64,000 nucleotides of DNA from an uncultured delta proteobacterium (GCA_963727625.1 CAVSHR010000009.1:449140-513139); one strand, 5' to 3'; counted from the stretch's first letter, positions 53,544 to 59,285 are shown. A program made the numbers and translations. The notes: generated from the letters alone by a model not told the origin.

Positions 53544-53973
53544 TCCTCCTTTCAGTCGGAACTAACGGAAATTAAGGCCTGCAATTGTAGAAGCCGCCAA
53601 CATCGCGATCCGGTTCAATTTCTTAATCAAGAGTATCTCGCTGAGAACGATCTCGAAGGACAACGTTGACCATCTTTGTTTGTCCCGTAACGCGGCAGGA
53701 GCTCGTTGCCTTTCCATATAACACAGACAGCGCGGGCGCGGCGAGCTAAGCAACTTGGAGTATTTCTCAACGAGGGTTCGTATATAGAGTCGCTCTCGGT
53801 AGGAGTGACGGTGTTCTAATGTTTGTTGATCGTTAAACTCCTGCCGAGAGACGACATTGATGCGCCTTACAGTTCGATCCTGCGGGAATATTGCGATGGT
53901 TTGGCCGAAATGGGCGGCCATTCGTTAGGGAGATAACCCGCCGTCCTGGCGGCTTTTGTCGGGAAACGAAACA

Positions 53974-54002
53974 TTGACAAATTCGGGTAGCTGGCTGATA
54001 TT
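53974..54002 (+). promoter_or_regulatory. Possible sigma70 promoter facing the recombinase gene (now separated from it by the intron)
   Basis: TTGACA, 17-bp spacer, GATATT. Confidence 0.35.
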
Positions 54003-54092
54003 GCAACCGATTTGGATTTTATTGGCGGAACCATCGTCGGAAATAAGCCGACCGGTATATGTCGCTGCCTACGGCGGCTTACTTAATAGTTG

Positions 54093-56054
54093 ATCGACAT
54101 AGGTAGGCTCTCACGAGCTGTCCCTGTCACACCACCGGGCATACGGGTCACGTACCACGGCGGTTCGATCGGATTAAGCATTTGAAGCGCCGGCTAATCG
54201 CGGAAGGCCGATCGAGTCGAAATAGCGATTGCGCAGTGCTTGTTGGACCGCCGGATGGCCTGACATACGCCAGAATCCCGTCGGTGAACCGGCAGCGACT
54301 GCCGCTTGGAACTTCGGAACGCCCCGTCGGCGCAGTTCTTTGAAACGGTTGTGTCCGTTCTGCCACTGCCGCCAGAGGTACATCCGTAGTCTCCGGCGAA
54401 TCCACGCATCCAGATTGGAAAGCACTCGGGGAGTTTGGCAAAAGCCAAAGTAGCCTCGCCAGCCAATCAGGTAATCGAGCCAATGGCTCGACCAGCTTGA
54501 CCAGACTTGCTCCACGACGTCCGACGTGTCAGTTCCCGTACCCGTAGCTTGAATCGTTCGAACCGCCTTCGGCGCAATTTGCCGTTCGCTCCCATCGTTC
54601 GTGATGCTAAAGCCCAGGAACTTTCGCTCCTCTGGTCGAGCCACAGCGCTCTTTGACTCGTTGACTTTCAGCCGAAGCCTAGTCGTCAGAGAATCGGCTC
54701 ACGCTGGCCATGACCCGCTCGCCCGCCCGCCGACTGCGTACGTAGATGTTACAGTCGTCCGCGTAACGACAGAATCGATGGCCGCGGCGTTCCAGTTCCT
54801 TGATCGAGTTCGTCCAGCACCAGATTACTCAACAGACGGAGAAAGAGGACCCCCTTGCGGTGTCCCTTCATCGGTCGGACGGACCAACCCGTCTTCCATC
54901 ACTCCGGCGTTTAAAAACGCTCGGATGATTTTCAGCACTCGCTTATCAGCCACCCGTTCCGCCACCCTTGCCATCAGCCGGTCATGGTTGACTCGATCGA
55001 AGAATTTCTCGAGATCGATGTCAACCACCCAGTTGTAGCCCTCAGCGATGTACGCTTGAGCTTGGGCAACAGCCTGATGCGCCGAGCGACCCGGTCGGAA
55101 CCCATAGCTGTGCTCGGAAAACGTTGGGTCCCAACTCTCTTTGCAGAACCTGCAGCAGCGCTTGCTGAATCACTCTGTCGACGACACAAGGAACGCCGAG
55201 CTTCCTGATCCCGCCATCCGGCTTGGGGATTTCCACCCGCTTGACCGGTTGCGGCTTGTAGGTTCCGCTGAGAAGTTGTTCCCGAATGTCTGGCCAGTGC
55301 TCCCGCAGGTAGTCCACGGCCTGCTCGATGGTCATCCCATCGACGCCCGCACTACCCTTGTTCTCACGGACGCGCTTCCACGCTATTTCGAGATTTTCTC
55401 GTTCGCACACCTCCTCCATTAACCGTTCTTCTATCTGCCGGGCTTTCAGAGTTTCGCTTCGCCACGAGCGGTTCGGTCCCTTTGCGGTCGAGCGTTCGGG
55501 GTTTCACCCCAACCTCCTTCCATGAAGGCCAGATGCAATTGCTTGCTCTGGATTTTCTGCCGCTTTCCGCTCATGAGTTGCGAGTCCTACTTGCCACTCC
55601 CAATCGTTCGGGCCTTCAGCAGTCGTTACCGGCTCCGGCCTTCCGTTTCTCCCCTTTCGGCGTGGAGTGCCTCAATCGAGCTTGACCGACTGCCCTTGCC
55701 TACTATGCCCTCTGCTGACTTCTGCGCCGCGATCAGGGTCGCCTCACGGCTTCCCTCAGTCTCCAATTTCGGAGACACAACGCAGACCTCCCGAGGTAAG
55801 TTCGACAGCTTTCCCCGCACACCTGCCGGATCTACAGCTCTGGCCCTTGATGGATATGGACTTCGCGATCAGTCGCCCGCTCGTCCGACCCGGGATGCCT
55901 CATATCCGGTTTCTGTTCGTCAGGTCGCGGCTTTGCTCCACGCTTCCTTCAGACGCCACCTCGCGATGACGCCCTTGCGCTTCGCTAATCCTTCACCTCC
56001 ATCAGGTTGGATAGGGGACTTTCACCCCCAAGCTCTCGAACATGCTCGGCACAC
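54093..56054 (-). mobile_element. Group II intron, bacterial class C type
   Basis: 5' end GTGTGCCGAGCATG; domains V/VI GAACCGCCGTGGTACGTGACCCGTATGCCCGGTGGTGT...CCTATGTCGAT 3' end; internal RT ORF. Confidence 0.9.
54174..55574 (-). pseudogene. ltrA: Group II intron reverse transcriptase/maturase with no En domain, several frameshifts
   Basis: NKGSAGVDG, IPKPDGGIRKLGVP, DIDLEKFFDRVNHD, GTPQGGPLSP, RYADD, KFLGF, WRGYF...WIRRRLR. Confidence 0.9.
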
Positions 56055-56207
56055 AACTAAACCGCTGCGCGGTGGCGGATACCGTGCGAAGTTTTCTGCC
56101 CTGATCTGCATTTGTTTTTCGCATTAGTTCCCATCAAGTCAGGCCACTGCCAGTCTTCACAATTTGCGTGATAGCGTCGCTCCCATCTTAAATCCAGGAG
56201 GGTTTTT

Positions 56208-57056
56208 ATGGGAGCACTACGAGAGAAGATGGTTGCGGAGATGAAGCTGCGCAACTTCGCGGCGAGGACGCAGAAGTCTTACCTGGCCGCGATGGTCGGG
56301 TTAGCTAAGCATTATCGGCAGTTCCCGGATCAGCTGACGCAGGACCAAATCCGGACGTATCTGTTGCATTTGCAGGAGCGGGGTTTGTCGAGTAGTTCGC
56401 TGAACGTCAATATTTCGGCGCTCCGATTTTTCTATCAACAAGTTTTGGGATGGAGCCGAGAACAGTTCTTCTTGCCACGAAGGAAACGGACCTGGCGTTT
56501 ACCGGAAGTGTTAAGCCCCAGAGAGGTCGAGCGATTGCTGCAAGCCGCCGTCAAATTGCGTGATCGCTGTTTGCTGATGACAGCATACTCGGCCGGACTG
56601 CGAGTCACGGAGCTAATCCATCTCAAACTCAGCGATATCGATTGCGAACGGATGATGATCCGGGTCGAACAGGGCAAAGGGAAAAAGGACCGTTACACGA
56701 TTCTCTCCCAACGTCTGTTGGGGGAACTGAAAAGATACAAGCAAACGTATCAACCCGTGCTGTGGGTCTTCTTTGGTAAAACCAGAAATGATCCCCTGCA
56801 CATCACCGCCGCGCAGAAAGTCTACAATCTCGCCAAGCACAAAAGCGGGGTTGAAAAAGGCAAAGGCATTCATACGCTGCGACATTGTTTTGCCACCCAT
56901 CTTTTGGAAGGTGGCGTGGACTTAGTGACCATCAAGACGCTGTTGGGTCATAACTCGCTTCAGAGTACCCAGCGCTATTTGCAGATTCGCCAGCCCAAGC
57001 TCGGTGCCACCGCCAGTCCCCTGGACTTGCTCGATCTGCGCGACGCCCCGCTTTAA
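56208..57056 (+). CDS. Tyrosine recombinase (phage integrase N-terminal SAM-like domain plus catalytic domain)
   Basis: [35 protein letters not shown]...TQRY; AGGAGG RBS. Confidence 0.94.
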
Positions 57057-57068
57057 CGGGGAATCGCC

Positions 57069-58238
57069 ATGTCGCTGGCCAAGCTGGCGGCAGGAGAGAA
57101 AACAACACGCCCCGAGTTGGCCGATATCTTTCGTCAGTACGGGGCGCGCTTCGAGCAAACCCATCGGGTGTCGGCTGCTGAGCACAAGGTGATCCGCGCT
57201 GTGACGGTCTGCCGAACTCAAGAACTCGGCGGCCACTTGGATCGCTGCGATGCCTGCGGCTTTGAGCGCCCGGCTTACAACTCCTGTCGCAACCGCCACT
57301 GTCCCAAGTGCCAGTCGCTGGCCAAAGCCCAGTGGTTGGAGAAGCAAACCTCTGAGCTTTTGCCGGTGGGATACTTCCACCTGGTTTTCACCTTGCCCCA
57401 TGAATTTAACCGGCTGATTCTTGCTCATAAGAAAATCGTCCTGAGTCTTTTGTTCAAAGCGGTCAGCGAAACGTTGCTGGATTTCGGTAAAAGCCGTCTG
57501 GGTGGAACTCTGGGGGTCATTGCTGTTCTGCACACCTGGGACCAAACCCTCAAGGATCATTTTCATCTGCACTGTCTGGTTCCCGCTGGCGCTCTGTCTA
57601 TCGATCGAAATCGTTGGATCGCGGCAGGTAAGAACTTTCTGTTTCCGGTCAAGGCCCTGAGCCGGGTGTTTCGGGGTAAGTTCTTAGACCTGTTAGGACG
57701 GGCTCGTCGACGAGGAAAAATTGATCCCATCTACAGCAACATCAGAGTTCCGCATCAAAAAGAATGGGTCGTCTATGCGAAAAAGCCTTTAGGTTCTCCC
57801 CAAACCGTTCTCGATTATCTCGGCCGCTACACTCACCGTGTAGCGCTCTCCAATGATCGTATCCTCGGTATCGATCAGGGCCAGGTCACTCTGAACTACC
57901 GGGATCGCAAAGACGGCGATCGCAAGAAAATGATAACCTTGGAGGCCCAAGAGTTTATCCGCCGCTTCCTGCTCCACGTCCTGCCCGATGGTTTCATGCG
58001 CATCCGTCACTTCGGCATTCTGGCTAACCGTTCTAAAAAACAAGCGCTGGCTCAGTGCCGTAACCTGCTGAAACTTGATCCGGCTTTGCCACAAATCCCC
58101 AAGCAATCAGCCCTAGACTTGCTGCTTAGGATCACCGGCGTCGATCTCTCTCGCTGCCCGTGCTGCCATGAGGGAATCATGATCACCGTCGGCGAACTGT
58201 CGGCGACGCCCAACCTGCGTTATTGGGATTCTTCATGA
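57069..58238 (+). CDS. IS91-family (Y2 HUH) transposase with zinc-binding domain
   Basis: CRT..LGGH...YNSCRNRHCPKCQ, HLVFTLP, LHTW...HFHLHC, YLGRYTHRVA, FIRRFLLHVLP.GF.RIRHFG. Confidence 0.94.
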   Translation: MSLAKLAAGEKTTRPELADIFRQYGARFEQTHRVSAAEHKVIRAVTVCRTQELGGHLDRCDACGFERPAYNSCRNRHCPKCQSLAKAQWLEKQTSELLPVGYFHLVFTLPHEFNRLILAHKKIVLSLLFKAVSETLLDFGKSRLGGTLGVIAVLHTWDQTLKDHFHLHCLVPAGALSIDRNRWIAAGKNFLFPVKALSRVFRGKFLDLLGRARRRGKIDPIYSNIRVPHQKEWVVYAKKPLGSPQTVLDYLGRYTHRVALSNDRILGIDQGQVTLNYRDRKDGDRKKMITLEAQEFIRRFLLHVLPDGFMRIRHFGILANRSKKQALAQCRNLLKLDPALPQIPKQSALDLLLRITGVDLSRCPCCHEGIMITVGELSATPNLRYWDSS

Positions 58239-58485
58239 ACAAAGCTTCGTCGAGTTTCATCTGGTTTGTCTCTGGACCTCGCCAGTCGCATGGATGGGTG
58301 TATCCGCAAACGCGAAAAACGATACGCAACGCTCTGTTTCCAGCGGGCCATCTCCAACGTTGGAATTTTGCAACACCCCATCGCCATTGCGATGATGCCC
58401 TCGTATCATCCAGAACCTGGCGCCGTGACGCCTCTGCCTCATTAAAATCCCCATAGCCGCAACTTGGGCGCTGCTCCGCAGTTTA

Positions 58486-58580
58486 GTCCAACACGTTTTA
58501 TCCCCTTGGCGTAACTTCGGCGCGATCGCCGCGACTTGATCGCTATTCAGCTTTGAGGGATAAAACGCTATACGTTAGGC
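58486..58580 (+). other. attC-like recombination site at the right end of the recombinase/IS91 unit
   Basis: R'' GTCCAAC, inner inverted repeat cgttttatccc / gggataaaacg, R' GTTAGGC. Confidence 0.65.
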
Positions 58581-58595
58581 CACACCGCGTTACTC

Positions 58596-58901
58596 ATGCT
58601 TAGCGAGCAGGACTCCCTCCGACTCTTCCGGTGGCGACGCCGAATGGTTGCCCTCTTTGTCGGAACATGGGTCTACATCCTCCTTGTGGTCGCGTTTCAT
58701 CTTCTTGCCAATCCCCCACCACATGTCGTCCAGCTGGCGCTTCTTCCTTCCCTTGGTCTTGTCATCGGCGGTGTCTGGCTCCAGTTCTCAATCCGCTGTC
58801 CTTCCTGCGGCTATCCGCTGGGCCGCCAGTCGCGCTTACTTGTTCCCGATCACTGTCGTTCGTGCGGCCTCTTCCTGCGTAATCCCGGGGGCGCGGCCTA
58901 A
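58596..58901 (+). CDS. Gene-cassette protein: 2 TM helices plus C-terminal zinc ribbon (CPSC...CRSC)
   Basis: ORF starts 16 bp after GTTAGGC, and its TAA lies inside GCCTAAC. Confidence 0.7.
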   Translation: MLSEQDSLRLFRWRRRMVALFVGTWVYILLVVAFHLLANPPPHVVQLALLPSLGLVIGGVWLQFSIRCPSCGYPLGRQSRLLVPDHCRSCGLFLRNPGGAA

Positions 58902-59030
58902 CAAGGCGCCGCAGCCGACGCCAAACAGCGCAATTCAATCGATCCATGGTACAATCCGGCGGATAGCGCTCTCGCCCAAGCGCTAACGGTTAGCGCTGTT
59001 TGTCGCGGCTGAGCGCCAGAATCGTTAACC
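58896..59030 (+). other. Integron attC site
   Basis: R'' GCCTAAC; arms ggcgccgcagccgacgccaaacagcgc / gcgctgtttgtcgcggctgagcgcc; R' GTTAACC. Confidence 0.85.
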
Positions 59031-59285
59031 CTGAGATTGAATTGAATTCTCCTTTGACCCAATCCTGCGAGATTTGACTGAAGCGTCGATCTGTTCGATC
59101 CTATGCCGATTCACAAGGCAAGTGTCTTACCGCAAGTTCCTTTAGACTCCAGCGGTTTGACATGAGCAAAAGCCCTATAGCCCATACCTTGCTTTTGGGT
59201 ATAGCGCACGAATACAATTCGTTTGCGTGATAGTCGTAAGACCGGAATGAAGAAACTTTCCGTGAATGAGTCTACGGGTGATGGT

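Follow-up and report, generated by a model that had tools for sequence, protein, structure and literature searches.

The window analysed here, a stretch of 64,000 nucleotides from an uncultured delta proteobacterium (GCA_963727625.1, CAVSHR010000009.1:449140-513139), contains an IS91-family element of 2,523 bp whose place within a small cassette array is the one that an integron cassette would occupy. The element encodes a tyrosine recombinase and an HUH/Y2 transposase. It is well defined and its target rule is strong: the insertion point is the G|TT of a GTTRRRY core of the integron type, and the orientation is fixed. G|TT is the boundary of an integron cassette and reads AA|C on the bottom strand, which we take to be the position that IntI cleaves in attC. 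The findings suggest that DNA can enter cassette arrays without the usual integron enzyme. In the reading that we prefer, and to which we give a probability of about one half, a single-stranded circle would be produced by rolling-circle displacement and would then enter the array through the element's own recombinase.

The element consists of TTG (54090-54092) and of 56055-58574, and is interrupted by a minus-strand group II intron that is defective (54093-56054; Table 1). The boundaries of the intron were set by an intron-free second copy of the element, found on another contig of the same genome (G000:C4:1402839-1405364). The two copies are 97% identical over 2,530 columns, with transposases that are 93% and recombinases that are 98.6% identical. 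An earlier, sequence-only reading of the window had proposed that removal of the intron restores the left end as GTTG|AACTAAACCGC, and this is the end found in the intron-free copy and in 18 of 23 related loci. In both copies within the genome the left end reads ...G|TTGAACTAAACCGC, which, as the same reading held, is a near-perfect inverted copy of the repeat at 58478-58492, located some 82 nt inside the right terminus. The right end of both copies reads ...GGGATAAAACGCTATACG and is followed by TTAGGCC in the window and by CTAAGCC in copy 2, beyond which the flanks diverge.

The element is common. A scan of species-representative genomes gave the 23 related loci, most of them with 68-82% amino acid identity, in metagenome-assembled genomes (MAGs) labelled Binatia, Deltaproteobacteria or Syntrophobacteraceae, and Nitrospirae. 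A scan of a metagenome collection matched 336 relatives, the best 80 of which were retained. In MAGs and metagenomes together, about 100 relatives establish the terminal sequences as TTGAAC...CTATACG, within the pattern G|TTGAAC...CTATACG|TTRRRY, and thus bear out the expectation that homologues would share terminal motifs. The right end was recovered at 16 of the 23 genome loci, and all of these alignments terminate at window positions 58576-58581. Because of this conservation and this common endpoint, the attC-shaped site that had been noticed at 58486-58580 is the right end of the element itself. At the distant loci L032 and L037 the end motifs were not found, except for a single TTGAACTAA match in L032. 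The 51 complete relatives are 2,334-2,553 bp long and none of them carries the intron. A recombinase open reading frame (ORF) of at least 270 aa is present in 47 of them, as is a transposase ORF of at least 342 aa (47/51, counted from the first ATG), both genes thus being intact in most copies.

Three further observations concern the right part of the element. Its least conserved section runs from the stop codon of the transposase gene to the internal repeat (58239-58477), where blastn alignments break at about query 2144-2380. At two loci (L024, 2647-2670; L026, about 2357) the last 6-21 nt of the right end are partly duplicated directly beyond the terminus. Finally, two solo sites in the genome are 77-80% similar to the right end (L003, G000:C5:58424-58532; L004, C5:231640-231739) and have neither a transposase nor a recombinase gene nearby; they could be remnants of right ends or attC-like sites of a related kind.

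The target rule was derived by pooling the flanks of all loci and removing those identical over the 25 nt beside the junction, which left 60 left and 76 right flanks. The base preceding the element (-1) is a G in 57/60. On the right side, T at +1 (71/76) and at +2 (76/76) is followed by R at +3 (68/76), +4 (65/76) and +5 (62/76) and by Y at +6 (70/76), and past +7 the flanks are diverse. Of the 76 right flanks, 40 have a complete TTRRRY, where base composition would predict 0.36%. It is this sequence, together with the G on the left, that identifies the target as the G|TT of a GTTRRRY core. The orientation relative to the asymmetric core is identical in all loci and there is no target duplication. 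Since the loci are kin, the flank counts overstate the number of independent insertion events.

The position of the crossover, between G and TT, follows from the exceptions: the right junction is G|CT in copy 2 and L025, which keep TT at the left, and L024 and L028 have T at -1 and keep the G of the right end. The site of copy 2, which is not a GTTRRRY core, lies between CCAAAA and TTTTGG, two stretches that could potentially pair. In the rhizobial relatives (n=2) the junctions are A|TT or A|CT and the flanks are not GTTRRRY. An empty-site allele, one of the checks proposed earlier, did not turn up: each flank of the window locus was searched in 30 relatives, and these searches returned repeat families only.

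The recombinase and transposase genes lie where the sequence-only reading had placed them, 12 nt apart, and are recognised by the respective family profiles (Table 1). The transposase is a full IS91 equivalog (NF033538, 437.4 bits versus a cut-off of 125). The recombinase, in turn, stays below every family cut-off (XerA-type, 183 versus 220 bits; XerC, 160.5 versus 335; XerD, 158.2 versus 330). It matches the IntI profile TIGR02249 with 156 bits (cut-off 265) in two stretches that omit profile positions 180-236, and because these positions are skipped the IntI-specific insertion, the presence of which had been left to be checked, is absent. The match to the IntI4 structure (2a3v) likewise comes in two stretches, and the closest solved relative is 4a8e, an XerC-like/XerA protein (137 bits). 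The recombinase shows the R, HxxR, H and Y residues, and both window proteins carry the catalytic motifs of their respective families. Within the genome the top paralogue of the recombinase is a real IntI, with 31% identity and, by a small margin, 116 bits versus 100 and 97 for the next two loci, which presumably are the host Xer genes.

The ends of the element differ from each other in structure. The left end, presumably the terIS side, carries a subterminal palindrome. At the right end, presumably the oriIS side, a 14-15-nt inverted copy of the left end is conserved and is followed by a conserved hairpin. The latter is formed by the arms CGTTTTATCCC and GGGATAAAACG, an 11-bp inverted repeat at 58494-58504 / 58557-58567, set between GTCCAAC (58486-58492) and GTTAGGC (58574-58580). 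These two sequences correspond to the R''- and R'-type cores RYYYAAC and GTTRRRY, with the crossover at G|TT. The site passes strict home-made attC criteria, as one of 39 such sites in 6.6 Mb. The home-made scanners missed most sites near intI and were used for this one purpose. An attC site comprises an R box and an L box, an unpaired central spacer, extrahelical bases and a variable loop (PMC8946536). In the element's own site the two arms and the loop are present, the spacers measure 1 versus 6 nt and the inner arm is without extrahelical bases. This spacing differs from the geometry of a canonical attC. The two rhizobial plasmid relatives (45-48% amino acid identity), for which NCBI annotates the same gene pair in the same order, share the arms and the spacing of 1 versus 6-7 nt, and one hairpin pair carries a compensatory change. 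An Rfam search gave no family match on the right-end hairpin. In most close relatives CTTGAT(T/C)GC is conserved in the variable loop of this hairpin (window 58525-58540), apparently in the loop of a small inner hairpin the stem of which varies among loci; CTTG is the IS91 target tetranucleotide.

The fold is more pronounced when the two ends are joined. The head-to-tail junction CTATACG|TTGAAC occurs in five contigs (L063, L131, L072, L093 and L097). In L063 and L131 the neighbouring copies are 78-83% alike and are therefore considered separate insertions, L072 is a tandem at a flanked site, and the contigs of L093 and L097 are self-closing, their units being 2,513 and 2,528 bp, and represent circles or tandems. 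Junctions of this kind are compatible with rolling-circle transposition through a single-stranded circle but can equally be tandems. The sequence-only reading had suggested a search for circular junctions; in the contigs of four soil/sediment runs (90-95% relatives) the joint between the two ends was not found. Folded as single strands, the natural junctions reach -27.1 and -24.9 kcal/mol (z -4.3 and -4.0; 0/200 shuffles equally good). The structure has an outer arm of 15 bp and an inner arm of 11-12 bp that ends in a variable loop; a bulge of 5 nt on the cleaved side separates the two arms. The cleavage point is base-paired within the outer arm.

We propose that the transposase would nick the bottom strand at the right end, that rolling-circle displacement would proceed to the left end, and that the displaced DNA would close into a bottom-strand single-stranded circle, as in IS91. 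The functional intermediate of IS91 is indeed a bottom-strand single-stranded circle (according to the accessible part of PMC13181058), and we infer that the transposase makes the same product here. The joined ends would then fold into the attC-like site, the element's recombinase would exchange one strand with the target core, and replication would complete the insertion, as for integron cassettes and the CTX phage. The sequence GTT is all that the element junction and the targets have in common, so that a classical two-strand exchange over a 6-8-bp overlap is unlikely; a one-strand exchange on folded DNA would fit better. The recombinase is favoured as the integrating enzyme because two conserved duplex arms flank the cleavage point, because the target is conserved on either side of the crossover and because the core is of the IntI type. 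A more far-reaching reading, less likely than not, is that the pair forms a self-contained, IntI-independent cassette system, in which an HUH-made single-stranded circle with a two-arm folded site would undergo Xer-like one-strand exchange at the AA|C of any GTTRRRY core. The original suggestion of a self-mobile cassette that enters arrays without IntI is thereby upheld in part: the bounds are exactly those of a cassette, the terminal motifs are conserved, the recombinase lacks the IntI insertion, the joined ends fold and there are hosts without detectable IntI, but integration may be the work of the transposase instead of the recombinase, the commonest target is not a canonical attC and the spacers of the element's own site are not those of a canonical attC.

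Several findings weigh against integration by the recombinase. The right end alone shows a modest excess of folding stability (z -1.74; 10/200 shuffles equally good), its unequal spacers are not the symmetric unpaired spacer with extrahelical bases of attC, and covariation in the hairpin is nearly nil in the close clade, with a compensatory change in 1/12 predicted pairs that comes from the rhizobial rows. The self-closing contigs can derive from tandem copies instead of circles, as tandems exist in L072. Copy 2 lies at G|CT in a context that is not that of an attC, and the commonest target is a hairpin plus a GTTAGGC core that is unpaired in the fold. The lack of IntI in host MAGs is an argument weakened by the incompleteness of these MAGs. 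Moreover, the IS91 transposase inserts bottom-strand circles by itself, and the end layout also fits the ordinary IS91 family, with a palindrome by the ter-side cleavage site and, on the ori side, palindromes and an adjacent short target (both from the accessible part of PMC13181058).

The closest rival explanation is that IS91-type rolling-circle transposition does everything. The Y2 transposase would nick the bottom strand after YYAA (right) and TCAA (left) and insert the circle beside a matching short target; the recombinase would be accessory and might resolve head-to-tail multimers, improve termination or act in regulation, in the manner of orf121 in IS91. Although below even odds, this explanation is nearly as likely as integration by the recombinase. 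Besides the full-equivalog score of the transposase and the single-handed insertion by its IS91 counterpart, it can point to tandem copies that are available as a substrate for a resolvase-type activity, to an end layout that follows the family description, to the similarity between the target and the ter-side cleavage sequence, known also from IS801 and IS1294, and to the upstream accessory gene of IS91, which has the same position as the recombinase gene (the comparisons resting on the accessible part of PMC13181058). It accounts less well for a target conserved over 7 nt and on either side of the crossover, which is more than a one-sided tetranucleotide. A base-paired cleavage point, as in the outer arm of the folded junction, is unusual for HUH nucleases. 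Likewise, a terminal inverted repeat of 14-15 nt with two conserved arms is unreported for IS91, which is described as being without terminal inverted repeats, as far as the accessible part of PMC13181058 goes.

It is improbable that the unit is a true integron cassette, with an IS91-type gene pair as chance cargo, that is excised and inserted through its attC by the IntI of the host. The cores do fit RYYYAAC/GTTRRRY with a G|TT crossover, the site at 58486-58580 meets strict attC criteria, cassette-like units surround the element, and the genome encodes a bona fide IntI elsewhere (L010, G000:C4:370957-371898; 467.8 bits versus a cut-off of 265), with cassette-like units nearby. IntI above the cut-off was, however, found in one of five host MAGs and not found in the other four, and among the 30 genomes of the relatives set (tallied without G005) the transposase occurs in six, three of which gave no IntI match (completeness 93, 80 and 81%); one IntI-negative genome, 80% complete, has 12 transposase matches. 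Judged by co-occurrence, this suggests that IntI is not required. The rhizobial relatives show the same end architecture at non-GTTRRRY flanks, copy 2 lies outside an attC-like context, both mobility genes are intact in 47/51 copies, and the spacer geometry is non-canonical. Near the intI gene a GTTAGGC core lies at about C4:369954 (minus strand); the first ORF past it is found again at C4:1357xxx (L008), where it follows a copy of the 165-bp unit described below.

Least probable of all is that the cassette likeness is incidental, the element preferring and travelling with a 165-bp host repeat so that the GTTRRRY consensus would reflect shared flank ancestry: 24/60 left flanks are of one family, the relatives are kin to one another and were de-duplicated on only the 25 nt beside the junction, but the identities of unit and element are barely correlated over 22 loci (r 0.20; reached in 58/2000 permutations), the remaining 36 left flanks are of other kinds and yet 57/60 end in G, and the right flanks are diverse past +7.

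The repeat in question lies directly upstream of the element (Table 1). It contains a terminator-like hairpin (53938-53952), a promoter-like TTGACA-17-GATATT (53974-54002) and a second hairpin (54044-54081). The latter, TAAGCCG / CGGCTTA at 54044-54050 / 54075-54081, had been noticed as a hairpin upstream of the left core; it is present, but belongs to this separate unit. The unit is multi-copy in the genus (one genome, for instance, has 12 matches) and also lies upstream of the element's relatives in MAGs of other phyla, and the 24 left flanks mentioned above end in CACTTAATAG with at most one mismatch. Given the poor correlation of identities it is mostly a preferred target and not a passenger; co-mobilisation of the unit with the element was considered and found weakly supported. 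In unoccupied copies a hairpin forms some 10 nt ahead of the core, which itself is unpaired, and for this reason the commonest target is not a canonical attC. At many loci, among them the window, L007, L008 and L009, the unit places a terminator and a promoter between G|TT cores, and in this genome a different ORF follows each copy; it looks like a mobile promoter cassette.

On the other side the element is followed by a further cassette-like unit, and the cassette-like units on both sides share its orientation. The 101-aa ORF of the downstream unit (58596-58901) gave no family match, and its attC-like site folds well (z -3.25; 1/200 shuffles equally good). The sequence from its GTTAACC core onwards (59023-59109) belongs to a repeat family that is present many times in three genus relatives, with as many as 18 matches in one genome.

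Table 1. Features of the element and its surroundings, in window coordinates
Feature	Position	Strand	Evidence
165-bp unit, insertion target, directly upstream	53925..54089	+	bounds G|TTAGGG (G at 53924) and ...AATAG|
Left junction: target G (54089) and first three bases of the element, TTG (54090-54092)	54089..54092	+	G at -1 in 57/60 flanks
Group II intron, 1,962 nt, 3 nt inside the left end of the element, opposite to its genes	54093..56054	-	Rfam RF02001 135.5 bits, E 9.8e-29; RF01998 41.8 bits
Remainder of left terminal repeat, AACTAAACCGC (56055-56065), and subterminal palindrome ACCGC-TGC-GCGGT (56061-56073)	56055..56073	+	invariant in 18 related loci
Tyrosine recombinase, Xer-like, 282 aa, lacking the IntI-specific insertion	56208..57056	+	PF00589, 122.9 bits
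IS91-family HUH/Y2 transposase, 389 aa, zinc-binding N-terminal domain, HLH and YLGRY motifs	57069..58238	+	PF04986 189.2 bits; PF14319 112.1 bits
Right end: inverted repeat GCAGTTTAGTCCAAC (58478-58492), arms (58494-58504 / 58557-58567), spacer CTATAC (58568-58573), terminal G (58574)	58478..58574	+	conserved in 16 genome loci and two rhizobial plasmid relatives
Hybrid core GTTAGGC: G of the element and TTAGGC of the target	58574..58580	+	right flank comparison
Next cassette-like unit (449-bp)	58575..59029	+	ORF 58596-58901 and attC-like site from GCCTAAC (58896) to GTTAACC (59023-59029)

The group II intron would have entered the left end later, behind a terminator-like hairpin, and appears to have decayed since. 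Its reverse-transcriptase/maturase gene is broken, with the RVT_1 and GIIM matches on separate ORF pieces in different frames, and a second copy of the intron was not found in the genome. It lies 6 nt past the hairpin ACCGC-GCA-GCGGT (minus strand, 56073-56061), which is the left subterminal palindrome, at the site TTAGTT|C in the left terminal repeat, on the side of the R'-type core. A search for EBS1 gave no match to the exon, and RF00029 no match at E up to 1. Class C introns likewise insert behind terminator-like hairpins. With the group IIC-attC introns it shares a ribozyme with a reverse transcriptase and a location on the bottom strand, opposite to the cassette genes and just past a stem-loop. 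The site differs, since IIC-attC introns insert at R'' in TTGT/T (accessible part of PMC7923331).

IntI is regarded as the only enzyme that fills and shuffles integron cassette arrays. If the proposed route is correct, these arrays would have a second entrance: an autonomous element would join them precisely at the boundary of a cassette and in the cassette orientation, with an attC-like site formed from its own joined ends. A role would also be suggested for the recombinase gene in this subgroup of IS91, and such elements could seed, reshuffle or tow cassettes in integrase-less arrays. They could, in evolutionary terms, also connect rolling-circle elements with the origin of attC sites.

The gene pair as such is already known and annotated. 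ISfinder lists some IS91-family members with an upstream tyrosine-recombinase gene, e.g. ISShvi3. The latter is noted in passing in the open literature, with no target rule, end structure or mechanism given in the accessible part of PMC9229058, and in the open-access text that was searched no description was found of the target rule, the end structure or the role of the recombinase. With IS91, IS801 and IS1294 the element shares the transposase equivalog, two unlike ends with subterminal palindromes, the lack of a target duplication, joined-end junctions and an orientation-specific insertion beside a short conserved target similar to the cleavage sequence of the ter side. The recombinase gene takes the place of the upstream accessory gene (orf121 in IS91). 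The family target is GTTC/CTTG beside oriIS, whereas that of the window element is G|TTRRRY, 7 nt in all and spanning the crossover, and the element differs further by its terminal inverted repeat of 14-15 nt and by the encoded tyrosine recombinase.

Integron cassettes with their attC sites have in common with the element the G|TT boundaries, the R''/R'-type cores, a folded two-arm site, co-oriented neighbouring ORFs and the location in a cassette array, and their site is divided in the same way between the two ends of the integrated unit. The element differs in having its own mobility genes, spacers of 1 and 6 nt, and hosts without detectable IntI. The proposed logic is the same as that of the CTX phage and XerCD, i.e. 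single-stranded DNA from HUH rolling-circle replication, a folded hairpin site and a one-strand exchange of the Xer type (mentioned in PMC9345347). The element, however, is not a phage, its recombinase is element-encoded and its target is a GTTRRRY core instead of dif. Finally, the IS1111-attC insertion sequences and the group IIC-attC introns show a comparable specialisation on integron recombination sites. Their enzymes differ, a DEDD transposase in the former and a ribozyme with a reverse transcriptase in the latter, and both interrupt the attC, whereas the window element lies at the boundary of the cassette and supplies its own attC-like site.

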